IMG/VR virus record: IMGVR_UViG_3300045988_039573
Coordinates: 1-42,091 of that record
Length of the DNA stretch: 42,091 nucleotides
Source: a virus
Strand: one strand, 5' to 3'
The notes beneath the pieces were generated by a model. It was not told the DNA's origin, made no database searches, and was given only the letters and a program-made list of their open reading frames with translations. Position 1 is the stretch's first letter. Every line of letters begins with the position of its first letter. The position numbers and the translations under genes are program-made. Below are positions 3,701-38,563 of this stretch, piece by piece.

Positions 3701-4358
3701 CGAATGCCCACTTTGCGGCGGCGTTGGATACACCGTGCGGAGGTCAGCAGACGGAAACGCGGAGTACCGGGAGTGCGAATGCTCCATCCGCAAAAGGAAT
3801 CTGCAACGCATCGAAAGAAGCGGGCTTAAAGAGCTTTTGCAGAGATGCACGATGGAGAACTATCGCGCGACTGAGCCGTGGCAGAAGCAGGCCAAAGAGG
3901 CAGCGGAACGCTATCTTGCCGATTGGCGCGGAAGATGGTTTTACGCCGGAGGAAGCCCCGGCAGCGGGAAAACGCACCTTTGCACGGCGATGTGCGGGAA
4001 GCTCATGGATGCCGGATTACCGGTGCGCTATGTGCAATGGCGTGCGGATATTCCAGCCATCAAAGCAAAGGTCAACGATGCCGAGGCATATCAAGACGCC
4101 ATTGATCCGCTGAAAAGCGTCAAGGTGCTGTACATCGACGATTTTCTCAAGGGAACGGCGACAGAGGCCGATCGCAACATTGCGTTTGATCTGCTCAATG
4201 CGCGGTATATCAAGCCAAGCCTTGTGACAATCATCAGCTCCGAGTGGACGATCTCGCGCGTGCTGGACTGGGACGAGGCGATAGGCTCGCGCATTGCGGA
4301 ACGGTCGAAAGGCTGCGTACTGAATATTACCGGGGCCAAAAACTACCGGCTGAAATGA
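3633..4358 (+). CDS. DnaC/IstB-like AAA+ helicase loader with N-terminal zinc finger
   Basis: CPLCGGVGY...CEC, then Walker A GSPGSGKTHL and Walker B VLYIDDF. The start may be 3633 or 3660. Confidence 0.8.
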   Translation: MDMVTILEEMRKNGTSPEPSISDECPLCGGVGYTVRRSADGNAEYRECECSIRKRNLQRIERSGLKELLQRCTMENYRATEPWQKQAKEAAERYLADWRGRWFYAGGSPGSGKTHLCTAMCGKLMDAGLPVRYVQWRADIPAIKAKVNDAEAYQDAIDPLKSVKVLYIDDFLKGTATEADRNIAFDLLNARYIKPSLVTIISSEWTISRVLDWDEAIGSRIAERSKGCVLNITGAKNYRLK

Positions 4359-4381
4359 AAGAATACCCGTTAGGAGGAGAC

Positions 4382-21058: not shown

Positions 21059-21658
21059 TCAAGCGTTTGGCATAACGGAAACCGTGTTGCTTGTTTCAAG
21101 TGTGTTGTAGTTTTTAGAGTCTAAAACATTCAGCTTAAACTCGACATTTGATATTTCGCTTAATGGGGTTTCACAAAAAACAACAAATGACGCTCTCACA
21201 TTTTTGGAAGGAAGTGCCGTAATCGGCAAGCCCGAACCGCTTTGACAATGCGTATTATCCACATAAACATCATCGAGCAAATAGGTGCATTCCTCGCCCC
21301 CGATGTTGCTGATTTTTATATCAATGTAAAAACAGCCAGTCAATCCGCTTGCTTCCCAGCATTTTAAATATTCGGCGGTGTAATTATCTCCACTAAATGT
21401 AATTGCATCCGTTTCATCTTTTAAATCCTGGGTTTCGTCACTAAGAGGATTTGGCGCTATGGACGAAACGCTATTTGCATTTGACGCTTCTGAGCCATCC
21501 GATGTTGGAAGAGATACGCATACAACAAAAAGAACAAAGAATGTGGCAAGGGATATTAAAGCGATATTCTTCCTCTTTTTCCTGATTGCAAGGATAACCA
21601 AAGTGAGCAATGAGACAACAAACCCTGCGATACTTAACAAGCCTAAAATAGCAATCAT
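21059..21658 (-). CDS. Moron: two-TM membrane protein with beta-sandwich (DUF4352-like) ectodomain
   Basis: MIAILGLLSIAGFVVSLLTLVILAIRKKRKNIALISLATFFVLFVVCVSL, followed by a Ser/Asn-rich linker and a beta-rich domain. The RBS is AAGGAGGG. The gene is visibly AT-rich and on the opposite strand to all flanking genes. Confidence 0.75.
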   Translation of the reverse strand: MIAILGLLSIAGFVVSLLTLVILAIRKKRKNIALISLATFFVLFVVCVSLPTSDGSEASNANSVSSIAPNPLSDETQDLKDETDAITFSGDNYTAEYLKCWEASGLTGCFYIDIKISNIGGEECTYLLDDVYVDNTHCQSGSGLPITALPSKNVRASFVVFCETPLSEISNVEFKLNVLDSKNYNTLETSNTVSVMPNA

Positions 21659-21677
21659 TTTAATCCCTCCTTTTATC

Positions 21678-24152: not shown

Positions 24153-24162
24153 GGCGGTGGCT

Positions 24163-24561
24163 ATGAATTACATCAAACTCAATGGGACATCGTTTGATGT
24201 CAACGTAGCAATATCCAAATACAACGAGAACTTCAATGTTTTGGACGGAGAGAATGCCGGACGTTCTAAAGACACCGGGCGAATGATTCGCGATGTGCTC
24301 GGAACGTACATCGGGCACAAGATCACGGTGTTTCGCCGAGGCGATGATTACCAGAGCTATGACGCATTTTGGAACTACCTGAAGGCTCATTCGGTGGATG
24401 ACTCCGTGCTACTCGAAGCGGCGGATGGAAACACGACAATTTCTTATCGGGCGTATTATACGAGCGCTTCGCACGACATTGAAAAGGTCGAAAACGGCGT
24501 GAATTACTGGGGAGAGATCGAGATCCATTTCATCCCCATTGCGCCTCAGATCACACCGTAA
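24163..24561 (+). CDS. Small tail protein (possible distal tail component)
   Basis: 132-aa ORF directly after the TMP, starting at ATG 24163 after an AAGGCGG RBS. The call is positional. Confidence 0.45.
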   Translation: MNYIKLNGTSFDVNVAISKYNENFNVLDGENAGRSKDTGRMIRDVLGTYIGHKITVFRRGDDYQSYDAFWNYLKAHSVDDSVLLEAADGNTTISYRAYYTSASHDIEKVENGVNYWGEIEIHFIPIAPQITP

Positions 24562-24570
24562 GGAGGGCTT

Positions 24571-26709
24571 ATGGACTATATTTTGATCGGCTCTTACCAA
24601 TTCGACCGCGTCGCATCAAAAGACGATATGCGCCTGGATTACTGCTCAACATACCGAGAGGTCGAGTTGGATGAAAGCATCCTGTCTTTTGACACCATGA
24701 ACGCTGAGGTATGCACGACTACGGTAGGCGCGCAGCTTTCCGCGTTGCCGGATAACACGCCTGTTATTATTTATCGAAACGATAAAGTCTTTACAAGGTT
24801 TGTTAAGCGGAGCATTTCGCGCATCGGGCCAAGCACATATCAGATCGTGGGGCGCTCTCCGATGGGCGCGCTTACAAACATGAAGCACCGCGGCGGCATC
24901 TACACGGGCGAGACCGTCGCCGAGGTCGTCACCGACATATGCGGGAACATCCCTGTTTTAGTCAAAAGCATTTTTGCCGAAATTAAGCTTTACGGTTGGC
25001 TTCCATACGCGGACGGGAAATCGCGCTCGGCAAGAGACAACCTCGCACAAGTTCTTTTTGCCATCGGCGCATATCTCGGGACAGATTTGAATGGCGTTTT
25101 GCGCGTTGATCCACTATGGGACGGAACGGCATCGATAATTGATGATGGGCGCCCCTATACGGGCGGAACGGCCAACTATGATCCGCCCGTCTCCGCTGTG
25201 ACGGTGGCGGAGCACCAGTATGTCGCGGGAGCGGAAGAAAAGGAGCTATTTTCCGGTACGGCGCAGAATGGCGACATCATTACCTTCTCCGAGCCGATGC
25301 ACTCGCTTTTGGCGAACGGCTTTTCCATTCTCGAGAGCGGGGCGAACTACGCAAAAATCTCTGCCGGAACGGGAACTCTCAAGGGAAAGGCATATATCCA
25401 CAACACACGCCTTGTGACAAGGACGGTCACAAAAGACGTGCCTGAGAATGTGGAGTCCTTTTTGGACGCAACACTCGTCTCCCTTGTCAATTCCTCCGCT
25501 GTCGCCAAAAGGCTGGCAGACTATTATAAATGCCGAGAGACCATCACCAACGGCATTGTAAGCGGGCAGGAAAAGCCCGGACATGTGGTCAGCGTCTATC
25601 ACCCCTACGATAAAAAGATGGTCTCTGCGTGCATCGTGAGCCTTGACACGACCATGAGCGGCACACTCAAGAGCGAAATGGCGGCGCTCGTCGGCTTTCT
25701 GCCCCCGCAGCCGGAAACCACGGAATACTACGACGAGCGCGTACTGCTCACCGGCTCCGGCGAGTGGGAATCAGTAATAGACGGTGAAATTCGTGTTGTG
25801 GTTATTGGCGGCGGCGAAACGGGCGCAAGCGGAAGCGCAGGCAGCTCGGCAGGCATTTCTTCGCAGTCCAAAAGCGGGTCATCCGGCTCCTATTCCGGTT
25901 CGTCCGCCGGTCAAGGCGGCGAAGGCGGCGAGGGTGGCTCCGGCGGAAAAATTTTAATCGCATCGCTAAATGTAATAACCGGGCAAAAATTTCAATATGC
26001 GGCTGCACAGCCTGCCGGAAACAGCACATTTGGGGAATTGTCAAGCGCGTCCGGTGAAGCCTCAGCCGATGGCTATTATGATTTGGTGACGCAAACTTTT
26101 TTCGGTCGAAAAGGCGCGAACGGTATAAAGGGTGGAAACGGAGGTTCCCCCGGAAATAACGGTCAAGCAGTCGGCGATTATCTCGGGGGCTACGGGATCA
26201 ACAGCAAAACGGTAAGACAAACCAAGTACGGGACATCGGGAACTGTAACGGCAAACGGATGGGGCGGCGGCGGTGCTGCACAAGGAGCAAACGGCGCGAC
26301 TTCGGCAGGAGAGGTCTATATCAACCTATACGGCGAGTTCAATTCGAATGATCCCTCTCAAAGCGTTGTTACGCTTAGCGGCAACTGTTCAGGCGGCGGC
26401 AAAGGCGCAAACGGAGCCAACGGAAATGACGGCGAAAACTATGGCGACGGCGGAGACGGCGGTCACGGCGGCGGTGGTGCCGGTGCAGTCGGTACGCTCA
26501 GCATGTCGTTTTCGCCATCCGGCAAAAATCCGAAAACAGAAACGGGCGGAGCATGGGCGACCGGCGGCTCTGCGGGCGCAGGCGGCGCAGGCAAGCCCGG
26601 CTGCATCATCATTTACTACCGCAAGAAAAAAGAGCTTCAGTCCGGCCCGCTCGTGACCAGCAACAACCTTGGCCTGCTCGATTCCCTCGGGCGGAGAATG
26701 ATCGTTTAA
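24571..26709 (+). CDS. Tail tip / baseplate protein with C-terminal glycine-rich domain
   Basis: 712 aa. The C-terminal third is Gly/Ser/Ala-rich (GGGETGASGSAGSS...GGEGGEGGSGG...GGGGAGAVG), as in glycine-rich minor tail proteins. Confidence 0.6.
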   Translation: MDYILIGSYQFDRVASKDDMRLDYCSTYREVELDESILSFDTMNAEVCTTTVGAQLSALPDNTPVIIYRNDKVFTRFVKRSISRIGPSTYQIVGRSPMGALTNMKHRGGIYTGETVAEVVTDICGNIPVLVKSIFAEIKLYGWLPYADGKSRSARDNLAQVLFAIGAYLGTDLNGVLRVDPLWDGTASIIDDGRPYTGGTANYDPPVSAVTVAEHQYVAGAEEKELFSGTAQNGDIITFSEPMHSLLANGFSILESGANYAKISAGTGTLKGKAYIHNTRLVTRTVTKDVPENVESFLDATLVSLVNSSAVAKRLADYYKCRETITNGIVSGQEKPGHVVSVYHPYDKKMVSACIVSLDTTMSGTLKSEMAALVGFLPPQPETTEYYDERVLLTGSGEWESVIDGEIRVVVIGGGETGASGSAGSSAGISSQSKSGSSGSYSGSSAGQGGEGGEGGSGGKILIASLNVITGQKFQYAAAQPAGNSTFGELSSASGEASADGYYDLVTQTFFGRKGANGIKGGNGGSPGNNGQAVGDYLGGYGINSKTVRQTKYGTSGTVTANGWGGGGAAQGANGATSAGEVYINLYGEFNSNDPSQSVVTLSGNCSGGGKGANGANGNDGENYGDGGDGGHGGGGAGAVGTLSMSFSPSGKNPKTETGGAWATGGSAGAGGAGKPGCIIIYYRKKKELQSGPLVTSNNLGLLDSLGRRMIV

Positions 26710-28529: not shown

Positions 28530-29579
28530 ATGATCGTAAACTATCCAAGGATGAGACGCCGTGCAGCGTGGCCAGATGACCTCGATACAGCATTAGAATT
28601 TGCATCGGCAAATCCATTTTCTATTTCGGCTCCACTTAATTGGGATGGCAAATTAGAATATACTAACGGAAGCGGATGGAAAACGTGGGATGGCAGCGAT
28701 ATTGCTTCCGGTAAAATCGAAAACAATCATTGCATTTATCTCAGAGGAATTGGGAATTCAAAAATAACCGGAGAATCTTCCAACCGCGCAAAGTGGAACA
28801 TTAGCGGGACAAATATCATCTGCAACGGGGATATCGACCTCCTATTAGACTATTCGCTCGTAAAAAGCGGGAATCTCCCCTCAATGGCGAACTACTGCTA
28901 CGCCTACATGTTCTATGGTTGCACGAGCCTCACGGCAGCACCGTCGCTGCCCGCAACTACACTGGCGAGCTACTGCTACTTCTCCATGTTCTATGGTTGC
29001 ACGAGCCTCACAACAGCACCGTCGCTGCCTGCAACTACGCTGGCGAACTACTGCTACTTCTTCATATTCCAAGGTTGTACGAGCCTCACAACAGCACCGT
29101 CACTGCCTGCAACTACGCTGGCGAGCAACTGCTACGCCTACATGTTCCAACGTTGCACGAGCCTCACAACAGCACCGTCGCTGCCTGCAACTACGCTGGC
29201 GAGCGACTGCTACCGCTACATGTTTTCCGGCTGTACGAGCCTCACAACAGCACCGTCACTGCCTGCAACTACGCTGGCGAGCAACTGCTACCGCTACATG
29301 TTCCAAAGTTGCGCGAGCCTCACAACAGCACCGTCGCTGCCTGCAACTACGCTGGCGAGCGACTGCTACCGCTACATGTTCCAAGGTTGCACAAAAATCA
29401 AACTATCCACAACGGCGTCCGGAACATATACCAAGTCGTACCGCATACCCAAAAACGGAACCGGGACAACAGCTTCCGGTGCGCTCGATAGTATGTTTGC
29501 CAATACGGGAGGCACGTTCAAGGGGACACCGGAAATCAACACCACCTACTATTTGGACAAGTCCAACACCATTGTGTGA
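28530..29579 (+). CDS. Leucine-rich-repeat (BspA/LRR_5-like) protein, putative receptor-binding protein
   Basis: Six and a half 26-aa repeats of CY.YMF.GCTSLTTAPSLPATTLAS. The gene is the last in the tail module. Confidence 0.7.
   Translation: MIVNYPRMRRRAAWPDDLDTALEFASANPFSISAPLNWDGKLEYTNGSGWKTWDGSDIASGKIENNHCIYLRGIGNSKITGESSNRAKWNISGTNIICNGDIDLLLDYSLVKSGNLPSMANYCYAYMFYGCTSLTAAPSLPATTLASYCYFSMFYGCTSLTTAPSLPATTLANYCYFFIFQGCTSLTTAPSLPATTLASNCYAYMFQRCTSLTTAPSLPATTLASDCYRYMFSGCTSLTTAPSLPATTLASNCYRYMFQSCASLTTAPSLPATTLASDCYRYMFQGCTKIKLSTTASGTYTKSYRIPKNGTGTTASGALDSMFANTGGTFKGTPEINTTYYLDKSNTIV
28875..29395 (+). repeat. 78-bp tandem coding repeats (LRR units)
   Basis: gcaccgtcg recurs at 28938 and 29016, then every 78 bp. 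The units are nearly identical at nucleotide level. Confidence 0.9.
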
Positions 29580-29647
29580 AGGAGATCATCGGCGAGAAAT
29601 ACACCGATGATAAATAAATTTTGAACGAAGAAAAGGAGAACAAAACT

Positions 29648-29905
29648 ATGACTACTACTCGTATCGCATCCGACGGCAAGCCCATCAAGGTCACGGGCAT
29701 CCCCGCTGGCTTGAGCGAAAACTCGGGCATCAAGAACAGCATCGTGCAGCCCGTCATGGCGCGCGACCTTTCCCGTGCCGGCACGGAGGTATATGTCGCC
29801 CCCTGCTACAAGCTCACCTACGACGAGGACGGCTACTGCGTCAAGATGACGACCTGCGCCATCCCCGAGGACATCGCGGAAAAGCTCGCGGAGCTGAACA
29901 AGTAA
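29648..29905 (+). CDS. Hypothetical protein (85 aa)
   Basis: ATG follows an AAAGGAG RBS. The upstream TTG of the track ORF was rejected. Confidence 0.55.
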   Translation: MTTTRIASDGKPIKVTGIPAGLSENSGIKNSIVQPVMARDLSRAGTEVYVAPCYKLTYDEDGYCVKMTTCAIPEDIAEKLAELNK

Positions 29906-29910
29906 ACAGG

Positions 29911-29928
29911 GCGGGGGCTATCCCCCGC
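29911..29928 (+). terminator. GC stem-loop after the tail module (weak terminator)
   Basis: GCGGGGG-CTAT-CCCCCGC with no clear U-tract. Confidence 0.35.
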
Positions 29929-29957
29929 TCTATCCTAAGGAAAGAGAGACAACGCCT

Positions 29958-30248
29958 ATGGAAGATTTGGCTGTAAAGCTGCAGGAGGTCAAGGACCGCT
30001 CGCTCCGAAACGAGGGGCGCATCAAGCAGTTAGAGGTAGATCAGCGGGCGCTGAATGAATTGGCGCTGTCGGTCAAAGAGCTGGCGACCGACCAGACGAA
30101 CATGAAGGAGGACATCGGCGAGATCAAGGCCAATGTGCGGAGCCTGACGGCCGTGCCGTCCAAACGCTGGGAGAAGGTCGTGGAGCTGATGATCGCGACC
30201 GTCGTGGGCGCGTTCATGGCGTGGCTTTTGACAGGGGGCGCGGTATGA
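29958..30248 (+). CDS. XhlA-like lysis-associated protein
   Basis: Coiled-coil N-terminus plus a single C-terminal TM (VVELMIATVVGAFMAWLLTGG). It heads the lysis cassette, as in PBSX xhlA. Confidence 0.6.
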   Translation: MEDLAVKLQEVKDRSLRNEGRIKQLEVDQRALNELALSVKELATDQTNMKEDIGEIKANVRSLTAVPSKRWEKVVELMIATVVGAFMAWLLTGGAV

Positions 30249-30952
30249 GGGACATCAAAGGCTCCACCTCAGAGGAAATCCGCATGATAAAGGCCATCCA
30301 GCGCTCCGTCGGGGCGCTGGACAACGGCTGGATCGGAAACCAGACTTTGAGCGACATCGCCGCAAAGCTCGGCGCGGACTGCTTCCCGCTCAACGTCGAG
30401 CTGTATGGACAGCCCTGCATCCTCGCGCGGGACATCGAGCCCGTCAATATGAGCGGTCCGCTGCCGAAAAACGCGATCTCGGGGAGCTTTTCTTGGCAGG
30501 GCGCGCCGTGCAGCATCCTGGTGCGCGGCGGCAAGGTCGTGCGCGACTGGAGCTGTCACTATCCCCGCCCTGAGAGCGTGCTCTACAAGACCACGGACGG
30601 CGCGGTGCGCATTGCCCGCGTGTCCTCGGCGGCGGCGCTGGGTGACGTCGTGTGGGCGGTCGGTGGTATGGGATTGCTCGGCAATTATAACCCTGCCGCA
30701 GAAGGCTTCACAGGGGCGTACAGCGACGTGCTGCGCAAGACCAACCACACCGTCCTTGGCTACAAGGGCGGGCTGCTCTACGGCTTTTACTGCCGCAGCA
30801 TGACCGCGCAGCAGGTCAACGCCTTTTGTCGGGACAAGCTCAAGCTGGAATACGCCGTTATGCTCGACGGCGGGCACGTCGCCGCCATCAACGGCGCGTG
30901 TAATAAAATCAACACACAGACGCGGCAGTTCTATGCCGTGCGGTTTCTGTAA
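30245..30952 (+). CDS. Phosphodiester glycosidase (NAGPA/DUF2233)-like wall hydrolase with N-terminal PG-binding-like segment
   Basis: NHTVLGYKGGLLYGFYCRSMTAQQVNAFCRDKLKLEYAVMLDGGHVAAIN resembles the R.A.G...G.L......MT..E......LG...A.NLDGG signature. The start has an ATGA overlap. Confidence 0.5.
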   Translation: MRDIKGSTSEEIRMIKAIQRSVGALDNGWIGNQTLSDIAAKLGADCFPLNVELYGQPCILARDIEPVNMSGPLPKNAISGSFSWQGAPCSILVRGGKVVRDWSCHYPRPESVLYKTTDGAVRIARVSSAAALGDVVWAVGGMGLLGNYNPAAEGFTGAYSDVLRKTNHTVLGYKGGLLYGFYCRSMTAQQVNAFCRDKLKLEYAVMLDGGHVAAINGACNKINTQTRQFYAVRFL

Positions 30953-30963
30953 AGGAGGCAAAA

Positions 30964-31152
30964 ATGCAAAATCGAATTGCCAATCTTCTCACGGTCAAGA
31001 GCATCGTGACCATCGTGCTCACGGCGGTTTTCTCGGTGCTTGCCCTGCGCGGCAGCATCAGCGGGACGGAGTTTCTGACGATCTTCACGACCATCATCGC
31101 CTTCTACTTCGGCACGCAGACCGAAAAGAAGAAAAATGAAGAGGTTTCTTGA
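30964..31152 (+). CDS. Holin (two TM)
   Basis: 62 aa with two hydrophobic helices and a charged tail (TEKKKNEEVS). It lies directly upstream of, and overlaps, the endolysin gene. Confidence 0.7.
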   Translation: MQNRIANLLTVKSIVTIVLTAVFSVLALRGSISGTEFLTIFTTIIAFYFGTQTEKKKNEEVS

Positions 31153-31798
31153 GACCCTGACCGCGTGGGAGAGGTCCGTGCGCGGCGATGCGGTGCACAA
31201 GCGCATCGTGGACGCCTACAACAGCTTTCTGCCCCATCCGCGCGGCTACAAGCTGACCTACACCGACGACTACTGCGCGGCGATGGTGAGCGCGGCGGCG
31301 ATCCTCTGCGGCCTAACGGAGGTCATTCCCATCGAGTGCAGCTGCGGCGAGCAAATGCGCTGGTATCAAGCGCGCGGCCAATGGATTGAGGACGATGCGC
31401 ACGTCCCCCAAATCGGCGAGCAGGTGTTTTACTACTGGAACGACCGCAAGGACTACGCCCTCACGGACTGCACCGGCGCGCCCAACCACACGGGCATCGT
31501 GACCGCCTGTGACGATCAGAGCTTCACGGTGTTCGAGGGCAACAAGGGTAAAGCTCACGAGTGCGGCTATCGGACGTTGGAAATCAACGGGCGGTATATT
31601 CGTGGCTTCGGCGTGCCGAAATACCCCGCGGACAAGACCGTGCTCACACGCGGCGACAAGGGCGCGGAAGTCAAGAAATTGCAGGAATTTCTCAATGTCT
31701 GCGGGTACGAGCTGGACGTGGACGGTTCATTCGGCTCCGCGACGCAGAAGGCATGGGGAGAATATGTTTACGCATACCTCGGGAAAATTCTAAATTAA
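31136..31798 (+). CDS. Endolysin: CHAP/Amidase_5-type cysteine peptidase plus C-terminal PG_binding_1 domain
   Basis: Candidate catalytic residues are Cys (DDYCAAMVSAA) and His (PNHTGIVTA...FEGN). The C-terminal LTRGDKGAEVKKLQEFLNVCGYELDVDGSFGSATQKA is a PG-binding repeat. Confidence 0.8.
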   Translation: MKRFLETLTAWERSVRGDAVHKRIVDAYNSFLPHPRGYKLTYTDDYCAAMVSAAAILCGLTEVIPIECSCGEQMRWYQARGQWIEDDAHVPQIGEQVFYYWNDRKDYALTDCTGAPNHTGIVTACDDQSFTVFEGNKGKAHECGYRTLEINGRYIRGFGVPKYPADKTVLTRGDKGAEVKKLQEFLNVCGYELDVDGSFGSATQKAWGEYVYAYLGKILN

Positions 31799-31865
31799 CG
31801 AAAGGAAAACGGGCGGGAGGCATGCCTCCCCTCGCGTGAGCGCTCTGCAAGCCCCGGCGCACAGC

Positions 31866-32102
31866 ATGGACAAGCAGCACCGAGCGATCCGGGCAAAATT
31901 ATCCTCTATGGCCCCGCGGCGGGCCGTGGCATACATTCGGTCTTTTGAGCTTCCACCCGACGAAATGGCGTGCCTCGTCGAGTGCGACGTGCGGGGCCGC
32001 TCCTGCGTACAGGTGGCATTTGAAATGAATCTGTCGCCGGATACGGTCAAAAAGTATCGCCGAAAGGCGTACCGCAAAATCGCATCGGAAGTCTTTGAAT
32101 AG
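31866..32102 (+). CDS. Sigma-70 region-4-like HTH protein
   Basis: LPPDEMACLVECDVRGRSCVQVAFEMNLSPDTVKKYRRKAYRKI matches a region 4 / LuxR-type HTH. The ATG at 31866 was preferred over the GTG at 31836. Confidence 0.6.
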   Translation: MDKQHRAIRAKLSSMAPRRAVAYIRSFELPPDEMACLVECDVRGRSCVQVAFEMNLSPDTVKKYRRKAYRKIASEVFE

Positions 32103-32140
32103 GAAAAGAGCTTCACCAAACGGTGAGGCTCTTTTCCTTT
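32103..32140 (+). terminator. Rho-independent terminator
   Basis: A 15-bp stem GAAAAGAGCTTCACC / GGTGAGGCTCTTTTC (one G-U pair) is followed by a T-rich tail. Confidence 0.7.
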
Positions 32141-32249
32141 ATGGGAAGGGTATGAATGACGCATGGAGCACGTCGTGACAAAAAATTAGCATATTCCGTC
32201 AGAATTTGCAAGCGCAATCGTTCGACGAATTTCGCCGTACACTTTTCAT

Positions 32250-32283
32250 CCCCTTTTCCGGCACTTTGGAAAAGGGGTTTTCT
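32250..32283 (+). terminator. Second rho-independent terminator-like hairpin
   Basis: CCCCTTTTCC-N8-GGAAAAGGGG is followed by TTTTC. Confidence 0.6.
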
Positions 32284-32316
32284 TGTACCATAAAGGCAGA
32301 AAAGGAGGTGCGCTGT

Positions 32317-32439
32317 ATGTACGAACGGCTTTTAGCATTGGGCTTCACCGAGCAGATGGCGAGGGATATTTTGGTGCTGTTCCCCGAGCCGGACGAGCTG
32401 CGCACCTATGTCTATTTCGCGGAGCTGCTGCATGTATAG
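32317..32439 (+). CDS. Hypothetical small protein (40 aa)
   Basis: ATG follows an AAGGAGG RBS. Translation is MYERLLALGFTEQMARDILVLFPEPDELRTYVYFAELLHV. Confidence 0.5.
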   Translation: MYERLLALGFTEQMARDILVLFPEPDELRTYVYFAELLHV

Positions 32440-32812
32440 CTATTATAATCCGTCGCCTTATGGCAAGAACGTGGGGGACTGCACCGTCCGGGCGATCTCC
32501 AAAGCGACCGGAAAAGACTGGGGTGAAACGTATCTCGCGCTCGCCATACAAGGCTACTTAGACGGTGACATGCCGTCGGCCAATGCGACCTGGGGCGCGT
32601 ATCTGCACTCCCTCGGTTATCGGCGCTACATCGTGCCGGACACCTGCCCGCTGTGCTATACCGTCGAGCAGTTTGCGGACGAGCATCCGGCAGGCACATA
32701 CATTTTAGCCCTGTCCGGTCATGTGGTGTGCGTGCAGGACGGGACGATCTTTGACTCGTGGGACAGCAGCAATGAGACTGTGATTTATTTTTGGGTAAAG
32801 GAGACTGAATGA
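32432..32812 (+). CDS. Conserved hypothetical protein, possible papain-like Cys/His fold
   Basis: NVGDCTVRAISKATGKDW...TYILALSGHVVCVQDG..FDSWDS has the Cys...His...D arrangement of small cysteine-peptidase-like proteins. No firm family assignment. Confidence 0.45.
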   Translation: MYSYYNPSPYGKNVGDCTVRAISKATGKDWGETYLALAIQGYLDGDMPSANATWGAYLHSLGYRRYIVPDTCPLCYTVEQFADEHPAGTYILALSGHVVCVQDGTIFDSWDSSNETVIYFWVKETE

Positions 32813-32813
32813 C

Positions 32814-33245
32814 ATGGCTTTTAATCCGTACTATCAAAACCCTTATTATCCACAGCCGATGCCGGATAACCTTATGCAGATGCGGCAGCAGCAGATGATG
32901 CAGCCTGCTCCGCCTCCCATGCCGCAAAATCCTGTTGCGACCGGCGGCGTGCAATGGGTGAGCAGCGAGCAGGAGGCGAGAGGCTACCTGATCGCGCCCA
33001 ACTCCGCCGTAGCGCTGTGGGATTCCACCGCTCCAACTGTGTACCTCAAGCAGTCCGACGCAAGCGGCAAGCCAACGCTCAAGATTTACGACCTCGTAGA
33101 GCGCGCAGAAACGCCCCGTACGGCTCCGCAGGAAAAGGGCGTGGAATTTGTCACCCGCGAGGAGTTCGACCGTCTGGCGGCGCTTGTGGGCGAAATAAAG
33201 GGCAAGAAGAAGCGTAAGGTCGAGGAGGACGAGGACGATGAGTAA
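32814..33245 (+). CDS. Pro/Gln-rich N-terminus protein with acidic/basic tail
   Basis: MAFNPYYQNPYYPQPMPDNLMQMRQQQMMQPAPPPMPQNP, then a globular core and KGKKKRKVEEDEDDE. Confidence 0.6.
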   Translation: MAFNPYYQNPYYPQPMPDNLMQMRQQQMMQPAPPPMPQNPVATGGVQWVSSEQEARGYLIAPNSAVALWDSTAPTVYLKQSDASGKPTLKIYDLVERAETPRTAPQEKGVEFVTREEFDRLAALVGEIKGKKKRKVEEDEDDE

Positions 33246-33456
33246 TCCCTTTATGACCGCGCTTGGCGGCGGGCAAATGCCGGGGCCGGTAGGCCAGTTC
33301 CAGCGCATGATGCAGCAGTTCCAGCAGTTCAAGGCGAATTTTCAAGGTGACCCAAAAGCGGAGGTCGAAAAGCTCTTGCAAAGCGGCAAACTCTCGCAGG
33401 CGCAGTTAAACCAGTTACAGCAGATGGCAAAGCAGTTTCAAAGCCTGATGCAGTAA
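33238..33456 (+). CDS. Gln-rich small protein
   Basis: 72 aa. QFQRMMQQFQQFKANFQGDPKAEVEKLLQSGKLSQAQLNQLQQMAKQFQSLMQ. The start overlaps the end of the upstream gene by 8 nt. Confidence 0.6.
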   Translation: MSNPFMTALGGGQMPGPVGQFQRMMQQFQQFKANFQGDPKAEVEKLLQSGKLSQAQLNQLQQMAKQFQSLMQ

Positions 33457-33522
33457 TCATCAACATAAATCAACATCGTGGCCACGATTTGATGAATAAA
33501 AATTTTTCAAAGGAGTGATACT

Positions 33523-34296
33523 ATGTCTCTTTCTGACGGCGGCGTTCAGGCCACTATGCCTGTTGCGCCAACCGGCATGATGAACAGCGGCTTTGGCGGC
33601 TTCGGCGGTGATGGCGCGTGGTGGATCATCATTCTTTTCCTGTTTGTTTTCTGCGGCTGGGGCGGCAATGGCTGGGGCAACAACGGCAATTCCGGCGGCG
33701 TGGTCGACGGCTATGTGCTGACCTCTGATTTTGCCAATGTCGAGCGCAAGATCGACAGTGTAAATCAGGGTCTTTGCGACGGATTCTACCAGCAGGCGCA
33801 GCTTGTCAACGGCACCAACATGGCGATGGCAAACGGCTTTGCACAGGCCGAGCTTTCCCGCAGCAACCAACAGGCGGCGCTGATGCAGCAGCTCAACGCC
33901 ATGCAGATGCAGGCCGCGAATTGCTGCTGCGAAAACCGTGCGGCTATCGCGCAGGTGCGCTATGACATGGCGACGCAGGCGTGCGACACGCGCAACACCG
34001 TGCAGAACGCCACGCGCGACATCATTGACGCGATGAACAGCGGGTTCCGCGGCATCGACCAGCGTCTAACCGCGCAGGAGATCGCTGCGAAGGACGCGAA
34101 GATTGCTGAACAGAACCAGCGTCTTTTTGCTGCTGACCTCGCGGCCTCTCAGGCTGCTCAGACGCTTGATATGCGCAACTATGTTAGCGCACAGTTCGCG
34201 TATTACAACCCGCGCCCCGTTCCTTCTTTTGAGGTTCCTGCACCTTATCAGTACGGGGGTTGCGGCTGCGGCTGCAATCAGGGCTGCGGCTGCTGA
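33523..34296 (+). CDS. Membrane-anchored coiled-coil protein with Gly/Trp-rich N-terminus and Cys-Gly C-terminus
   Basis: GFGGFGGDGAWWIIILFLFVFCGWGGNGWGNNGNSGG (TM), internal CCCENR, a Gln/Ala-rich coiled coil, and a C-terminal GGCGCGCNQGCGC. ATG follows an AAAGGAG RBS. Confidence 0.7.
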   Translation: MSLSDGGVQATMPVAPTGMMNSGFGGFGGDGAWWIIILFLFVFCGWGGNGWGNNGNSGGVVDGYVLTSDFANVERKIDSVNQGLCDGFYQQAQLVNGTNMAMANGFAQAELSRSNQQAALMQQLNAMQMQAANCCCENRAAIAQVRYDMATQACDTRNTVQNATRDIIDAMNSGFRGIDQRLTAQEIAAKDAKIAEQNQRLFAADLAASQAAQTLDMRNYVSAQFAYYNPRPVPSFEVPAPYQYGGCGCGCNQGCGC

Positions 34297-34325
34297 CAAC
34301 TGCATAGCATAGCTTTTTGTTGGCG

Positions 34326-34347
34326 ATTTTGTTGACGTCAACAAAAT
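34326..34347. promoter_or_regulatory. 22-bp perfect palindrome
   Basis: ATTTTGTTGACGTCAACAAAAT equals its own reverse complement. It lies in the intergenic gap after the 33523 gene. Confidence 0.5.
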
Positions 34348-34377
34348 GTTCGGCCCCGTGCCGATACTGACAACAAC

Positions 34378-34410
34378 GCGGCGGGGCTATTGCCTCGCCG
34401 CTGTATTTTT
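34378..34410 (+). terminator. Rho-independent terminator
   Basis: GCGGCGGGGC-TATT-GCCTCGCCGC (one G-U pair) is followed by TGTATTTTT. Confidence 0.7.
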
Positions 34411-34426
34411 AGAAAGGACTGAACTC

Positions 34427-34642
34427 ATGAAAACGATTGACGAGCTGAAACAAGAATTTGTAGACCATCTTGCTGCTATGGATAAGTCCGAAATGAGCAT
34501 GGTCGAACTCGCAAACTATGCCGATCTGCTGCATAAGGCGGACGCTCTTTTCAAGCCAAGCTATACAGATGTACTTGCATCCGGCTTCATTCCCCCTTTT
34601 GCGGCAACTACTTGGAAAAAGGAGGAGAAGAAAAATGGCTGA
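34427..34642 (+). CDS. Hypothetical protein (71 aa)
   Basis: The MKTIDELKQEF... start was chosen downstream of the terminator that the longer track ORF (34346) would span. Confidence 0.5.
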   Translation: MKTIDELKQEFVDHLAAMDKSEMSMVELANYADLLHKADALFKPSYTDVLASGFIPPFAATTWKKEEKKNG

Positions 34643-35057
34643 ATATAGTAATTCCACTATTGTTTCTGTTGCTGCTGGGCAAAACGTCCCGCTGACCGAA
34701 ACGGCGGTCAACAGCAAGCCCTGTATCGTGCATCGCCAGGGCGCAGGCATTGTCACGCTGCGCGGCCTCACCAATCAAAACCGCGCCCTGTTTCGGGTCT
34801 CCTTTGGCGGCAACATCGCTATTCCCACCGGAGGCACGGTTGAGGCCATCACGGCGGCGCTTGCCATCAACGGAGAGCCGTTGACCAGTGCAACGGCGAC
34901 TGTCACGCCTGCGGCGGTAGAGAACTACTTTAACATTTATGTTTCCGCACAGGTCTGCGTCCCGAAAGGCTGCTGCCTGACGGTCGCAATGGAAAACACC
35001 AGCACTCAGGCCGTCAACTTCGCCAACTCGAACCTGACGGTTGAGAGAATCGCGTGA
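34635..35057 (+). CDS. C1q/TNF-like jelly-roll protein resembling the BclA C-terminal domain
   Basis: All-beta pattern: ..VSVAAGQNVPL...IVHRQGAGIVTLRG....ALFRVSFGGNIAIPTGGTVEAITAALAINGEPLTSATATVTPAAVENYFNIYVSAQVCVPKG.CLTVAMENTSTQAVNFANSNLTVERIA. The RBS is AGGAGG. Confidence 0.5.
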   Translation: MAEYSNSTIVSVAAGQNVPLTETAVNSKPCIVHRQGAGIVTLRGLTNQNRALFRVSFGGNIAIPTGGTVEAITAALAINGEPLTSATATVTPAAVENYFNIYVSAQVCVPKGCCLTVAMENTSTQAVNFANSNLTVERIA

Positions 35058-35070
35058 AAGGAGAATGGAC

Positions 35071-35496
35071 ATGAGTAAGAAAGCAATGTATGAGCTTCGC
35101 AATATGCTGTGCGACGAACTCGACGAACTGGCGCGCAAGGGCGATCTGGGTGCGGGCGACCTTGAGATCGCGCACAAGCTAACCGACACCATCAAGAACA
35201 TCGACAAGATCGAGATGATGGAGGACGACGGTTATTCTCGCGACGGAGACTATTCGCGTCGCTATTCCCGCGATGGTGATTATTCCCGCGGCGGCGACTG
35301 GCAGGCCGATATGCGCGGCACTTACGGCAGGGGCAGCTCCTATGCTCGCCGCGGCACGCATTACGTCCGCGGGCACTACAGCCGCGCCGACAGCATGGAG
35401 CACCTGCGCGAGCAGATCAACGACATGATGCGCGAGACGGACGACGACCGCGTAAAGGAAGCGCTGCGGCGTGCCGCGAGCTTGATGGAGGAATAA
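35071..35496 (+). CDS. Hypothetical protein with central (D)GDYSR / Arg-Tyr-Gly repeats
   Basis: Helical ends flank DDGYSRDGDYSRRYSRDGDYSRGGDW...GTYGRGSSYARRGTHYVRGHYSR. ATG lies 7 nt after an AAAGGAG RBS. Confidence 0.6.
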   Translation: MSKKAMYELRNMLCDELDELARKGDLGAGDLEIAHKLTDTIKNIDKIEMMEDDGYSRDGDYSRRYSRDGDYSRGGDWQADMRGTYGRGSSYARRGTHYVRGHYSRADSMEHLREQINDMMRETDDDRVKEALRRAASLMEE

Positions 35497-35510
35497 GGGG
35501 GTGCGTCCCC

Positions 35511-35846
35511 TTGATCGACGAAAACGAGGTCAATCTGTGGATATCGCGGCTTGAGACGGAGGAATCGAGTTGGCCCAATTACCAGAAGCTGGCGGCGCTG
35601 TACATCATCCAAAATCAAAACGCGGCCAAAGAACCGGAAAGACCGATGTTGTATTCGGCATCTCCGGCGCCGGTCAAAGCCTATACGTCTGAAACGGTAG
35701 GCAGCTACGGCGACAGCGATTTTTTGCAGGCCGTCTCCGACATGGCCCCGGCAAGAGCGTGGGAGGTCATGGACGAGCTGATGGACAGCCTTAAAATCGT
35801 CAACGAGCGCGTGTACAACAGCGTGATGCGGAAGCTCGAAAAATGA
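35511..35846 (+). CDS. Hypothetical protein (111 aa, TTG start)
   Basis: This is the only long in-frame ORF here. TTG lies about 9 nt after GGGGG. The RBS sits in the hairpin AAGGGG-GTGCGT-CCCCTT. Confidence 0.45.
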   Translation: MIDENEVNLWISRLETEESSWPNYQKLAALYIIQNQNAAKEPERPMLYSASPAPVKAYTSETVGSYGDSDFLQAVSDMAPARAWEVMDELMDSLKIVNERVYNSVMRKLEK

Positions 35847-35880
35847 GAACACCCCCGTCGTAAGGCGGGGGTGTTCTTTT
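35847..35880 (+). terminator. Rho-independent terminator closing the accessory cassette
   Basis: An 11-bp stem GAACACCCCCG / CGGGGGTGTTC is followed by TTTT. Confidence 0.8.
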
Positions 35881-35920
35881 GGGCATAATTAACCTTTGGG
35901 AACACCAAGGGCAAATATGC

Positions 35921-37219
35921 CTAACGGGGCGTTACAAAAAACGCGCCGTCGTCATCTGCGTCAATTCTCCGGATAAAGCGCGTCCAAAATTCCTTTTTTT
36001 CTTCCCGGGAGTAAGTGTCATATTCAGCAAGTCCATTTCGCAGCGCGTCAAGGTTTGTTTTCGGCTTTTCCTCTACCGCTTCAAGGGATTTTTTCAAGCT
36101 CGCATACTCCTGCTTGTATTCGTCCAGCTCGATCAAGTCGTTAAGATAAAGCGTTTTCAGTTTGCTCATTTTCTTTCGTATCGCGTCCGCGCTTTGCGTG
36201 GGCTTTTTTTCTGCCTTTTTGTAATAGCGATTGTTTCGCTCGGCAATCCCTTCAAGCTCATGCAATAAATAATCTTCCAGCGCGTCTTCGCGGATCCTCT
36301 TTTTGTGCTGGCACGCGGAATTGTCGAGCATGCGGGTCCTGCAACGGTAGTATGTATAAATCTGCTTTGCCGTTTCCGATTGCATCGTTTTCCCACACTC
36401 TTTGCAATGCAACAAGCCGGAGAACAGATAAACGCGATCTGTCTCAACTCCTGCGCAGCGCTGCGACCGCTGGCGGAGAATATCATTTACGATGTCGAAA
36501 TCCTGCTTGCTTATTAGGGCGGGGCAAGCGTTCTCGATGCCGTACACCTCGCCGATATAAAGCCGGTTCCGGAAATAGTTTACATATTTGGTATACGCCC
36601 TGTCAATGCCCCACGTCTCGAGCATATACTTCTTTACGCCCAGCACGCTTTGCAGTCTGATATACGCCGCAAACATATCTCGTGCGGCATCTGCCATATC
36701 GTTATCAATCTGGTATTGCCTGTCCTTAACAATATACCCTAAAGGCGCTTTAGACCCTGCAGGTTGGCCCTTTGCCCGTTTTCCGTCGTTGATAAATTTG
36801 ATCCGCTCGCTTGTGCGGTCGGCCTCGTCCTGCGCGACGGAAAGCATGATATTGACCTTCAATCGCCCGGACGCGGTGCGCGTCTCGTAGTCCTCTTCCG
36901 TCGCTTGCCATGTCACGCCGTATTTGTCAAGCTGTGTCTGTACATCGTAGTATCCCGCGACGTTGCGGAACCAGCGATCGAGTTTAATAAACAAGATCGT
37001 GTCTATTTTCCCCGCTTTGCAATCGTCCAGCAGCCGCAGAAGCGCAGGGCGCTTTTTGTACGGCTTTCGCGCGGATATTCCCGCGTCCTCATATATGCCA
37101 ACCACGGTCATTTCATTCGCTTTGGCATACCTTGTCAGCGCGTCACGTTGCTCTTGTAATGATAGCCCATGCCGCGCCTGCTCCTCGCTCGAGACGCGGA
37201 TATACAATGCCGCTCTCAT
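35921..37219 (-). CDS. int: Large serine recombinase (integrase)
   Basis: MRAALYIRVSSEEQ contains the nucleophile Ser motif. Resolvase and recombinase domains follow, then the zinc ribbon CKECGKTM...YYRCRTR...ACQ and a coiled coil. The RBS is GGAGGGGGG. The 19-codon upstream extension in the track was rejected. Confidence 0.9.
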   Translation of the reverse strand: MRAALYIRVSSEEQARHGLSLQEQRDALTRYAKANEMTVVGIYEDAGISARKPYKKRPALLRLLDDCKAGKIDTILFIKLDRWFRNVAGYYDVQTQLDKYGVTWQATEEDYETRTASGRLKVNIMLSVAQDEADRTSERIKFINDGKRAKGQPAGSKAPLGYIVKDRQYQIDNDMADAARDMFAAYIRLQSVLGVKKYMLETWGIDRAYTKYVNYFRNRLYIGEVYGIENACPALISKQDFDIVNDILRQRSQRCAGVETDRVYLFSGLLHCKECGKTMQSETAKQIYTYYRCRTRMLDNSACQHKKRIREDALEDYLLHELEGIAERNNRYYKKAEKKPTQSADAIRKKMSKLKTLYLNDLIELDEYKQEYASLKKSLEAVEEKPKTNLDALRNGLAEYDTYSREEKKEFWTRFIRRIDADDDGAFFVTPR

Positions 37220-37635
37220 CGAACCCCCCTCCAAAATCCGTAATCTATGCAATGGAAATCGATATACACGCACCACGCAGCGAGAAAAACGGTGATGAGG
37301 AACAATATAGCAATCACGCCGTTTCGGATACGCACGCCGCGCCGCATGATCTCAATCATGTCCGCTTTTGCGTCAACATGGCGTTCCAGCTCATCGTTGC
37401 GCGCCTGCAATGTCTCCTCGTTCCTGGTCAACCGTTCGGAAATCCCGAACGCTTCATCAAGCGATATTCCAAGCGCTTTGCAGATCGGCGCGACGGTGTA
37501 GATGGACGGAGATTTCGAAAACTTGGAAAAGAAGTTCTGCACGGTGGACAGCGGTACGCCGGAAGCGTCGGAAATGTCTTGATAGGTCAGTTTCAATTCT
37601 TCTTTACGGATTCTACACACTTCTTGAATATTCAT
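37216..37635 (-). CDS. XRE-type HTH regulator with coiled coil and C-terminal transmembrane anchor
   Basis: LTYQDISDASGVPLSTVQNFFSK is an HTH. VIAILFLITVFLAAWCVYIDF is a TM segment. The stop overlaps the integrase ATG (ATGA). Confidence 0.7.
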   Translation of the reverse strand: MNIQEVCRIRKEELKLTYQDISDASGVPLSTVQNFFSKFSKSPSIYTVAPICKALGISLDEAFGISERLTRNEETLQARNDELERHVDAKADMIEIMRRGVRIRNGVIAILFLITVFLAAWCVYIDFHCIDYGFWRGVR

Positions 37636-37799
37636 TTACGCCACCTTAATTTTTTCCGATTTTCGCGCCGCAAAGTCGCAAGATAAGGTCTTGTCGAGCC
37701 ATGTCGAGCGCTGTTTTATTGCAAGGCTTCGGCATTGAATTACCAAGCCAAAGTGGGCTACGGTAAAGACAAGCAGCGGCGGCCGATCCCCGCTGTCTG

Positions 37800-37839
37800 C
37801 AAAAAAGCCCTCGCCGTTGTTGCAGAGGCGGCGAGGGCT
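37800..37839 (-). terminator. Rho-independent terminator (minus strand)
   Basis: On the minus strand, AGCCCTCGCCG-N12-CGGCGAGGGCT is followed by TTTTTT. Confidence 0.75.
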
Positions 37840-37843
37840 AACC

Positions 37844-37987
37844 TTACTTCATACCAAGGAGCTTGCCAAGTTTTCTTTGCCGCCCTGCTTTGGTCGTTGG
37901 GATCCCAGTTCCTTTTGAAATTTTCCTTTTCATCTTCGTGATTCCGAGCGCACGTTTCCAACTAAAGGACAGGCCGGGGATCTTCAT
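37844..37987 (-). CDS. Possible very basic 47-aa peptide
   Basis: MKIPGLSFSWKRALGITKMKRKISKGTGIPTTKAGRQRKLGKLLGMK. The ATG overlaps the upstream stop (TAATG), and the ORF ends 5 nt before the terminator. Confidence 0.35.
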   Translation of the reverse strand: MKIPGLSFSWKRALGITKMKRKISKGTGIPTTKAGRQRKLGKLLGMK

Positions 37988-38457
37988 TATTGATTCACCA
38001 CCCTTTCAACTTTTTCAATCATCTTAGCACATAGATCGCGCCCATGCTTGAGACTTTCTTCCGGCATTTGGTCGGCATACTCGTCAACGATAGCCGCGAT
38101 GCTTTGAGCCTTTTTTACCTGCCCGCGAGATAGGCCGAAAATATGCACAGTTTCTTTTTGGATGTACCGAGAAAGAAAACTGTTTGTATGGGTAGCCTTT
38201 TCGTTTTGTAGCATTTTGGCGCATTCGTTCGGGGAAACCCTTCCACCAGCCATACACTTAGTATCGCCACCTGCGACCTCTGCTATCTGCGCTACGGTTT
38301 GCTCTGCAAGCTTGTACCGGGAAAAGTATGTTTCGATGTTATCCGTATTGGCAATGATGCGAATGCAGTCGGCAAATATTTGCGATTGACGCTTAACAAA
38401 GGCAGTTTCCGCAGCGGTCATTTTTTTCTTGCCGAAAAGCGAGCCTAAAATACCCAT
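37987..38457 (-). CDS. Hypothetical protein (156 aa), lysogeny-region accessory gene
   Basis: Clean ORF in a lower-GC segment with no recognisable motif. Confidence 0.55.
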   Translation of the reverse strand: MGILGSLFGKKKMTAAETAFVKRQSQIFADCIRIIANTDNIETYFSRYKLAEQTVAQIAEVAGGDTKCMAGGRVSPNECAKMLQNEKATHTNSFLSRYIQKETVHIFGLSRGQVKKAQSIAAIVDEYADQMPEESLKHGRDLCAKMIEKVERVVNQ

Positions 38458-38563
38458 TTACGCTTCCCCAATCTTTTGCAAATATTATTATTTTGTTGCA
38501 CAGCGCCGTGCAGCAAACGCCTGTTGTGGGAATAGATATAAATACCGAAAAGGAGGTCGAAGC

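Follow-up and report, generated by a model that had tools for sequence, protein, structure and literature searches.

Ten small genes between the lysis genes and the integrase of a phage recall, each in part, several described systems. The phage is IMG/VR virus record IMGVR_UViG_3300045988_039573, whose 42,091 nucleotides (hereafter the window) make up a complete siphovirus-type temperate genome of ~42 kb. Moron or lysogenic-conversion loci of temperate Firmicutes phages sit at the prophage end, bracketed by terminators and equipped with a regulator of their own, and usually hold a variable gene or two of atypical composition and patchy presence. Two-component spanins (lambda Rz/Rz1) belong to the lysis genes, and the inner-membrane spanin is laid out as an N-terminal anchor, a coiled coil and cysteines. 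Assembly inside the cell, with no secretion step, is how spore coats, exosporia and endospore appendages arise; whatever a phage releases by lysis is also made in this way. The subunits of one such appendage, Ena, are jelly rolls of 12–17 kDa locked by a Cys-Cys motif (bioRxiv 10.1101/2020.08.21.260141).

Here, we follow this block of genes across phages, where, to judge by conserved sequence and order, a single module of seven or eight of them has stayed syntenic over deep divergence in thousands of phages of gut and rumen Clostridia, and we weigh what the module may build. Literature searches on ExsFA/BclA or C1q-like proteins in phages and prophages, and on genes after Clostridiales endolysins, returned nothing on this module.

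Synteny of the block across phages

The ten co-directional open reading frames (ORFs; p1 to p10, Table 1) fill the space between the CHAP lysin and the serine integrase on the + strand, and automatic gene calls on near-identical contigs return the same sizes (40, 126, 143, 72, 257, 71, 140, 141 and 111 aa), in agreement with an initial annotation that had listed ten such genes after the endolysin. Its descriptions of composition and motifs are also correct: a helix-turn-helix (HTH) in p1, Pro/Gln in p4, Gln in p5, a transmembrane segment, CCC and GGCGCGCNQGCGC in p6, and DGDYSR in p9. AGGAGG-type ribosome-binding sites precede all genes save p1 (counted from its ATG) and p3. Three pairs (p2/p3, p4/p5 and p7/p8) overlap by 8 nt, and the starts of p3 and p8 are translationally coupled to p2 and p7, respectively. 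Six of the proteins (p3, p4, p5, p6, p8 and p9) match PHROG families, all of unknown function, at E 7e-15 to 7e-53. Because of these matches, and because p2 to p10 (p7 excepted) recur in order in dozens of divergent loci, the block genes are not chance ORFs.

Scanning one genome per bacterial species for p6 yielded 40 loci, mostly in bins of Oscillospiraceae and other Clostridia, many of them on contigs of ~42 kb. The order p3-p4-p5-p6-p8-p9(-p10) is the same in ~35 of the 40 (tBLASTn and iterated hidden Markov model (HMM) searches), with protein identities across syntenic loci down to 28–35%. The core consists of p2-p3-p4-p5, which are translationally coupled, then p6, then p8-p9-p10; p10 was found in 25 loci, whereas p1, p2 and p7 are less widely kept (12, at least 13, and 3 loci). 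Relatives of p6 and p8 number at least 7,988 and at least 7,494 in a large protein collection, none of them named; the p3 family comprises 2,853 clusters at 50% identity, and the exact p8 sequence of the window is listed in 211 blocks of an assembly collection. With thousands of syntenic copies, the block is therefore a widespread phage module and not one-off cargo. The loose, strain-specific set of ten cargo genes first envisaged gives way to seven or eight genes that are syntenic over divergent phages. Among the four genes whose co-occurrence had been in question, p6, p8 and p9 do recur together, whereas p7 appears in only 3 of ~48 loci and has no Pfam or PHROG match.

The module is not confined to prophages. 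It is complete in the cultured Butyrivibrio phage Ceridwen, at positions 22484–26447 after the lysin and with p10 included; this phage has no integrase or excisionase, only its lytic cycle has been seen, and its paper left the block genes as hypothetical. Dulem virus 33, from lemur gut, keeps the same order, with a PGRP lysin on one side and an integrase on the other. Of all pairs, p4 and p6 are retained most widely: Bajarodcaudo virus 5 and Dulem virus 36 have the p4–p6 core only, the latter with a p5-like gene between the two. Behind p6, two loci (L042, 9734–10153; L043, 9723–10106) encode a different family of small Cys-rich beta-proteins with an N-terminal GCGGC followed by CIC; this protein of the p4–p6-core phages had no Pfam or PDB match.

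The surroundings of the module vary. Flanking lysins are of CHAP, CHAP-amidase, M15_4, PGRP, GH25 or glucosaminidase type, and the integrases downstream belong either to the serine type or to one of two tyrosine-type groups. As initially described, the block occupies the lysis-to-integrase junction; where the phage is integrated, no further phage segment separates it from the host genes. Elsewhere it lies between a minor head protein and a putative major capsid gene (L033, in the chromosome of Lachnospiraceae JLR.KK009, where the prophage lies near 5.23–5.25 Mb of CP143549) or begins 10 nt after a receptor-binding protein gene (L043, Dulem virus 36). In L047 and L056 an opposite-strand, divergent gene for an Xre-type HTH protein, with one or two more genes, stands between lysin and block, and the block there must therefore be transcribed on its own. 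Two loci with the window's exact p8, L054 and L056, differ in lysin (CHAP or M15_4) and in integrase (serine or tyrosine), and an identical p8 in two backbones suggests recent exchange of the module between phages. The module is thus conserved and mobile, and it is probably separately regulated. Because it moves as a unit and keeps its order and RNA hairpins over deep divergence, it must matter to these phages, and it ranks among the commoner unexplained features of the phages of human-gut Clostridia.

Extra genes enter other loci at the p5/p6 and p6/p8 gaps; these inserts include an HNH endonuclease (L001, 12873–13424), a C5 DNA methylase (L033, 11033–12148) and two that carry no assignment (L002, 10759–11652; L014, 3045–4073). 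On a 160-kb host contig (L050, 12773–13873) the prophage end overlaps a short GerA-family gene and adjoins SpoIID; this phage may have inserted into a spore-germination receptor gene, and the two genes imply that the host forms spores.

Regulators, RNA elements and proteins

On both sides, towards the lysis genes and towards the integrase, the block is insulated by strong terminators. The hairpins marked at the outset after p1, ahead of p2, between p6 and p7 and after p10 are real, as all four fold far better than shuffled sequence (Table 1). The one ahead of p2 lies ~35 nt before the p2 ribosome-binding site, and close relatives show a hairpin end and a T-run at the same place. The palindrome that had been placed at 33475–33488 folds weakly alone but is conserved at a fixed position: its ATCGTGGCCACGAT core lies ~35 nt upstream of p6, a position kept in most loci, and occurs in the symmetric variants ATGCGGCCGCAT, ATCTGCGCAGAT, TTTCTGGCCAGAAA and CCGTGCGCACGG, always with a central GGCC or GCGC. 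A search for sigma-70-type promoters brought up nothing convincing; a single weak site (9/12 matches) lies on the + strand inside p10, and promoter-like sites are no more numerous than in shuffled sequence.

Between p6 and the next gene lies a three-hairpin RNA element, whose last hairpin is terminator-like and stands just ahead of the next ribosome-binding site. Compensatory changes affect 15 of its 20 base pairs (23 loci). With a covariance model (R1), loci that have the element show a single copy and no additional ones; this copy adjoins p8 in L002 and p6 in L033, and none is found in Ceridwen or in loci with short p6–p8 gaps. An Rfam search of 29500–38500 gave nothing above any gathering score. 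The element may act as an attenuator or as an mRNA-stability element. A further hairpin occurs in the p2-less variants L004–L007 and L010, where GCCCATACTGGACAC...GTGTTCGGTATGGGC, ~50 nt upstream of p3, encloses the p3 ribosome-binding site and start codon and may control translation.

By its match to Pfam Sigma70_r4_2 (E 1.1e-6; 28.6 bits, cut-off 25.7), p1 is a predicted sigma-70 region-4 or LuxR/GerE-type HTH protein; the scores for GerE (E 6e-5; 23.0 bits, cut-off 23.5) and Sigma70_r4 (21.5 bits, cut-off 24.1) fall short. A complete sigma factor was rejected, since p1 has only 78–88 aa and NCBIfam sigma models cover its last ~47 residues, far below their cut-offs. One of the 12 loci in which an HMM search found p1 is a distant phage, in which 70 nt separate the end of the gene for a 78-aa Sigma70_r4 protein from p4. 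The idea of a dedicated regulator thus remains plausible, in the form of a regulator that varies by lineage, p1 here and the Xre-type protein in L047 and L056. Beyond the loci with HMM matches to p2, an ORF with the pattern "xxRLxxxG(F/Y)xxxxAxxI" was seen by eye ahead of p3 in others, Ceridwen included; a Pfam scan of p2 gave only a non-significant match to UBA (E 0.075).

Beyond the HTH of p1, searches of Pfam, NCBIfam, PHROGs and PADLOC (for p2, Pfam only) gave no virion, lysis, replication or defence family: Pfam returned no structural or lysis family, every PHROG match is in the unknown-function category, and Pfam and NCBIfam scans found no nuclease, ATPase or nucleotide-signalling domain. 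Sequence and profile searches of the PDB with p3, p4, p8, p9 and p10 gave no match. The initial impression that nothing here resembles a virion, lysis, replication or defence protein is borne out. Among the ten proteins, only p6 has a hydrophobic segment and none has a signal-peptide-like N-terminus; all products but p6 are therefore predicted to be cytoplasmic. For lack of signal peptides we rejected a Sec-secreted structure, and the secreted assembly suggested earlier is unlikely in the usual sense of the word.

p6 begins with a short acidic N-terminus, followed by its single membrane segment WWIIILFLFVFCGW (Kyte-Doolittle 2.0) between Gly/Asn-rich stretches. A long helical region rich in Gln, Asn and Ala, with a coiled coil, carries the CCC motif and leads to a PxPxPxY motif and a Cys-Gly tail; GGCGCGCNQGCGC is C-terminal, and cysteines total 11. 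At ~30% overall identity the membrane segment (WWIIILFLF) is almost unchanged, and CCC and the Cys-Gly tail are also kept.

For p8, the AlphaFold2 (AF2) model has a predicted local distance difference test (pLDDT) score of 65 overall and ~75 over residues 38–140. Foldseek matches in the PDB (probability 1.0, E 2e-3 to 7e-3) include TNF, 4-1BBL, C1q, C1QL2, Cbln1, BxpB (8d02) and ExsFA (7r1m), and viral structure matches are collagen-repeat, C1q and BclA proteins. p8 is thus predicted, with moderate confidence in the model, to be a jelly roll of the TNF/C1q type, as found in TNF/C1q ligands and viral fibre knobs. Pfam searches with p8 and 22 relatives (E up to 0.5) found no C1q, TNF, exosporium or DUF3992 family. 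The Cys-Cys pair C113/C114 is invariant among relatives (alignment A6), most of which have further cysteines and keep a single Cys near residue 28.

p3 is a putative papain-like Cys-His-Asp enzyme. Its candidate triad is C17, H97 and D108; these residues and D16 are invariant in 50 relatives (alignment A2), and in a more diverse alignment (A9) each of the three is at least 90% conserved. In the AF2 model (pLDDT 92), C17 opens helix 16–26, H97 stands just before strand 98–102 and D108 closes strand 105–108, a residue pattern of the papain-like/transglutaminase-like superfamily. The best Foldseek match is weak (E 0.02, probability 0.91, template modelling (TM) score 0.52); the matches comprise YopQ (8brf) and, at E 0.1–2, Josephin-2, the TssM deubiquitinase, CHAP, Tae4 and OTUD3. 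At the level of predicted structure, then, the papain-like and C1q/BclA-like labels first given to p3 and p8 hold. In Bacillus and Geobacillus phages p3 relatives stand alone among early genes, and in phage Tsamsa one lies ~900 bp upstream of an ocr-like anti-restriction gene. Ten longer proteins of the family showed no informative domain fusion; one protein joins half of p3 to p4 and is probably an assembly or frameshift artefact.

The spacing of the p3 residues mirrors that of the C39 peptidase ComA (Cys17/His96/Asp112; sequence verified, PDB 8hf4), and hhalign aligns the two catalytic cysteines in register. As in C39 leader systems, many p6 relatives begin with a leader-like motif, for example YSLSDIAAATGG or MTPADIAAVTGN, which occurs in 14 of 38 distinct p6 N-termini against 1 of 1,645 background ORFs. 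Unlike in those systems, no ABC exporter accompanies the block, the N-terminus of the window's p6 (MSLSDGGVQATMPVAPTG) is of another type outside the motif, and loci without p3 retain the leader-like sequence of p6, so that the motif does not track p3. We rejected p3 as a C39 double-glycine peptidase: the hhalign probability is 0.2–0.3%, there is no Pfam C39 hit (E up to 1), the PDB profile search gave no chain for p3, and no C39 enzyme is among the 50 Foldseek matches listed.

The remaining proteins combine conserved folded or helical portions with low-complexity stretches (p4, p9 and p10) or are short. p4 opens with a low-complexity N-terminus (11 Pro, 8 Gln and 7 Met in residues 1–45), followed by a conserved beta-rich core of ~60 aa, a "VTREEF" helix and a charged tail (alignment A3). 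Pfam scans of 23 p4 relatives gave only sub-threshold noise; the helix matches the BMFP "membrane fusogenic" family in 5 members, at best E 0.008 and below the cut-off. Gln makes up 24% of p5. In p9, residues 50–105, with their DGDYSR repeats, are rich in Arg, Gly, Asp, Tyr and Ser, and conserved helical ends flank this core on both sides (alignment A4). A C-terminal motif of p10, "MDELM...VN.RVY..V..K", is conserved (alignment A5).

A proposed coat-like assembly and its alternatives

We tentatively favour the possibility that the block, under regulation of its own, encodes a coat-like protein complex that is anchored in the membrane and put together from within the cell. The block proteins would assemble on the cytoplasmic face of the membrane, with p6 as a membrane-anchored coiled-coil scaffold, p8 as an oligomeric jelly-roll unit, and p4, p5, p9 and p10 as low-complexity, self-associating adaptors. 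p3, the lone enzyme, would trim or cross-link other module proteins, and the cysteines (CCC and the Cys-Gly tail of p6, Cys-Cys of p8) could lock the assembly by disulfides or bound metal. The complex would exert its effect on the host envelope in the course of the phage's own cycle. It is composition, resemblance of folds and the lack of signal peptides that suggest the likeness to a coat, and not homology. We prefer this reading because it accounts for the missing export signals, the single conserved anchor, the jelly roll, the cysteines, the low-complexity partners, the one enzyme and the expression structure. Where operons yield unequal amounts of product, the gene of the most abundant subunit is usually the one bracketed by conserved RNA structure, and p6 is probably the most abundant part, since stabilising or attenuating hairpins flank its gene.

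The likeness to spore coats, exosporia and Ena extends over several features. The block encodes small proteins with no signal peptides; p8 is a predicted ~15-kDa jelly roll whose conserved cysteines include a Cys-Cys pair, its partners have a high content of Gln, Tyr, Gly and Cys, and a putative cysteine enzyme and a GerE-like small HTH protein complete the set. Unlike those systems, the block is encoded by phages, one of them on a Butyrivibrio host, and its proteins matched no coat, exosporium or DUF3992 sequence family. The Cys-Cys motif lies in the N-terminal connector of Ena but in the core (113–114) of p8; p8 was rejected as an endospore appendage subunit on this ground and for want of a DUF3992 hit. 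In predicted features, a membrane-anchored p6 coiled-coil stalk with a p8 head also recalls type II TNF ligands and BclA-type fibres, except that here two polypeptides supply stalk and head, p8 lacks collagen repeats and Pfam gives no C1q/TNF hit.

Several results weigh against a coat-like complex. No family of coat, exosporium or appendage proteins came out of the searches of Pfam, NCBIfam and PDB profiles. The p8 model is moderate, with 37 N-terminal residues unmodelled and TM scores of 0.4–0.53, and the structural matches of p3 are weak, the best at E 0.02. As p3 relatives stand alone in Bacillus and Geobacillus phages and several loci keep p4–p6 without p3, p3 may not act on other module proteins. 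Disulfide locking is questionable in strict anaerobes.

A more specific version, to which we give a low probability, is that phages of gut Clostridia carry a kit (membrane anchor, jelly-roll subunits, low-complexity adaptors and processing enzyme) for a cross-linked protein coat or fibre built inside the cell, much as spore coats and appendages are assembled. The product would end up on the cell or the spore, or would surround released particles, and the hairpin element between p6 and p8 would control stoichiometry. We know of no such phage-encoded material; a coat-like reading, if true, would add a new kind of virus-built material.

Lysogenic-conversion cargo, expressed in lysogens and possibly in sporulating cells to remodel the cell envelope or spore surface, is unlikely, though it fares best among the alternatives. 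Position speaks for it, as does the block's own set of regulators and terminators: the block resembles moron loci in its place, its terminator brackets, its regulator and its prophage-end site, where it is the last phage segment before host genes. One host (L050) forms spores, to judge by the GerA and SpoIID genes beside the prophage, p8 matches exosporium BxpB and ExsFA as well as any TNF protein, and p1 scores just under the GerE cut-off. Spore coats, moreover, typically combine Gln-, Tyr- and Cys-rich proteins that lack signal peptides with a cysteine enzyme. Yet no coat or exosporium family was matched, and the initial description as accessory cargo holds only in part. The block is a conserved set of seven to eight genes rather than a variable gene or two, and it is kept across very divergent phages at the composition of the phage itself (GC content 0.53–0.57 over the cassette region, ~0.54 across the window), without the atypical composition and patchy presence of morons; by its GC content it is not foreign DNA of recent origin. 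Of a promoter and terminator of its own, the terminators are clear and the promoter match is the weak one inside p10. The block sometimes lies among head or tail genes, in a head-gene cluster in L033 and directly after the receptor-binding protein in L043. The complete module also occurs in Ceridwen, a lytic phage without integrase whose host is Butyrivibrio fibrisolvens. This host is not known to form spores.

The module might instead be a late accessory to egress, with p6 as a spanin-like or membrane-disrupting protein whose partners help to open an outer envelope layer once holin and endolysin have done their part; we regard this as still less likely. In more than 20 loci the block follows directly on holin and lysin genes, whatever the lysin type, and p6 shares with inner-membrane spanins an N-terminal membrane segment, a long coiled coil and conserved cysteines, to which the weak BMFP match of the p4 helix may be added. 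Against a spanin stand the lack of a lipoprotein partner, the six further conserved genes and the block's own terminators and regulators; since no other protein has a signal peptide or hydrophobic N-terminus, spanin membership was rejected even though the p6 layout fits. More generally, strong terminators and separate regulators intervene between lysin and block, the block is not downstream of lysis genes in L033, L034 and L043, and its seven conserved genes are far above any known egress system. Most of the named hosts are single-membrane Clostridia.

Less probable again is a virion accessory, a capsid decoration or side fibre with p8 as a trimeric knob. The p8 fold is that found at the tips of viral collagen-like fibres, and the positions in L033, between minor head and putative major capsid genes, and in L043, after the receptor-binding protein, would suit such a role. 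Most loci, however, have the block outside the structural genes and behind terminators, the membrane segment of p6 is highly conserved, and no PHROG structural category was matched. The window already holds a full set of head and tail genes; terminase, portal, major head and tape measure proteins, together with XhlA-like and holin-like proteins and the CHAP lysin, cover virion and lysis functions elsewhere.

We consider equally improbable a conflict system of phage against phage or host, whether for superinfection exclusion, defence or counter-defence. Such a role would fit a block that includes a membrane protein and lies at the prophage end beside Xre-type regulators. It would also fit the p3 relatives among early genes, with the ocr-like neighbour in Tsamsa, and the deubiquitinase-type proteases among the best fold matches of p3. 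PADLOC gave no significant match, its sole weak one being p6 against PD-T4-6 (E 0.016); nuclease, ATPase and nucleotide-signalling domains are lacking, and low-complexity, structural-type proteins predominate. Conservation this deep across phages is also unusual for defence cargo. A chance run of ORFs or of unrelated single-gene cargo insertions, which the short low-complexity proteins and several internal hairpins might suggest, is refuted by protein conservation, fixed order and translational coupling in dozens of divergent loci.

As cultured Ceridwen (on Butyrivibrio fibrisolvens DSM 3071) and the Lachnospiraceae JLR.KK009 prophage carry the block, the choice between the coat-like assembly and these alternatives is directly testable. 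Any function found would serve seven or eight large unnamed phage protein families; a decoration or exclusion module would bring a modest gain in annotation.

Neighbouring genes and feature coordinates

Table 1. Positions of the block genes, RNA features and surrounding phage genes in the window.
Feature	Position	Strand	Remarks
p1, predicted HTH protein, 78–88 aa	31836–32102 (GTG start) or from 31866 (ATG)	+	start uncertain
p2, 40-aa helical mini-protein	32317–32439	+	start 32317
p3, 126-aa putative papain-like protein	32432–32812	+	phrog_3754, E 4e-35
p4, Pro/Gln/Met/Tyr-rich N-terminus	32814–33245	+	phrog_21718, E 2e-31
p5, 72-aa Gln/Met-rich protein	33238–33456	+	phrog_22984, E 2e-20
p6, 257-aa single-pass membrane protein	33523–34296	+	phrog_16490, E 5e-48
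p7, 71-aa helical protein	34427–34642	+	lineage-specific insert
p8, 140-aa predicted jelly-roll protein	34635–35057	+	phrog_20016, E 7e-53
p9, Arg/Tyr/Gly/Ser/Asp-rich repeat core	35071–35496	+	phrog_28802, E 7.5e-15
p10, 111-aa helical protein	35511–35846 (TTG start)	+	
Hairpin after p1, terminator-like	32101–32138	+	-29.1 kcal/mol, z -7.5
Intrinsic-terminator-like hairpin (32250–32277) with T-run	32250–32283	+	-17.6 kcal/mol, z -3.3
Palindrome/hairpin upstream of p6	33469–33493	+	alone weak: -7 kcal/mol, z -1.9
Three-hairpin intergenic RNA element, p6 to next gene	34295–34427	+	hairpins 34323–34401: -38.1 kcal/mol, z -3.9
Bidirectional terminator between block and convergent integrase gene	35845–35877	.	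-29.5 kcal/mol, z -6.7; terminator call on the minus strand
Large terminase	10447		
Portal	11685		
Minor head protein	14770		
Major head protein	16526		
Tape measure	21726		
XhlA-like protein ("hemolysin")	29958		lysis block
NAGPA-like (phosphodiester glycosidase) protein	30221		lysis block; weak match
Holin-like protein, 62 aa	30964		lysis block
CHAP + peptidoglycan-binding lysin	31136–31798		
Serine recombinase (integrase)	35921–37276		convergent to block
Xre-type HTH protein	37216–37635		lysogeny region

The four-part lysis block (29958–31798) includes two candidate wall-degrading enzymes, the NAGPA-like protein and the CHAP lysin; a look-up of the exact lysin sequence gave no record. On the minus strand, a low-GC stretch (21059–21660; 0.415 against ~0.54) holds a gene for a membrane-anchored protein, wedged between genes in the tail-chaperone position and the tape measure. 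It looks like a classic cargo insertion and is a more typical cargo candidate than the block. The early region includes a PAPS-reductase-like gene (4244–5461; phrog_424, of the auxiliary/host-takeover category), and at the end of the tail genes (28530–29579) stands a BspA-type leucine-rich-repeat protein, which may be an adhesin or receptor-binding protein.

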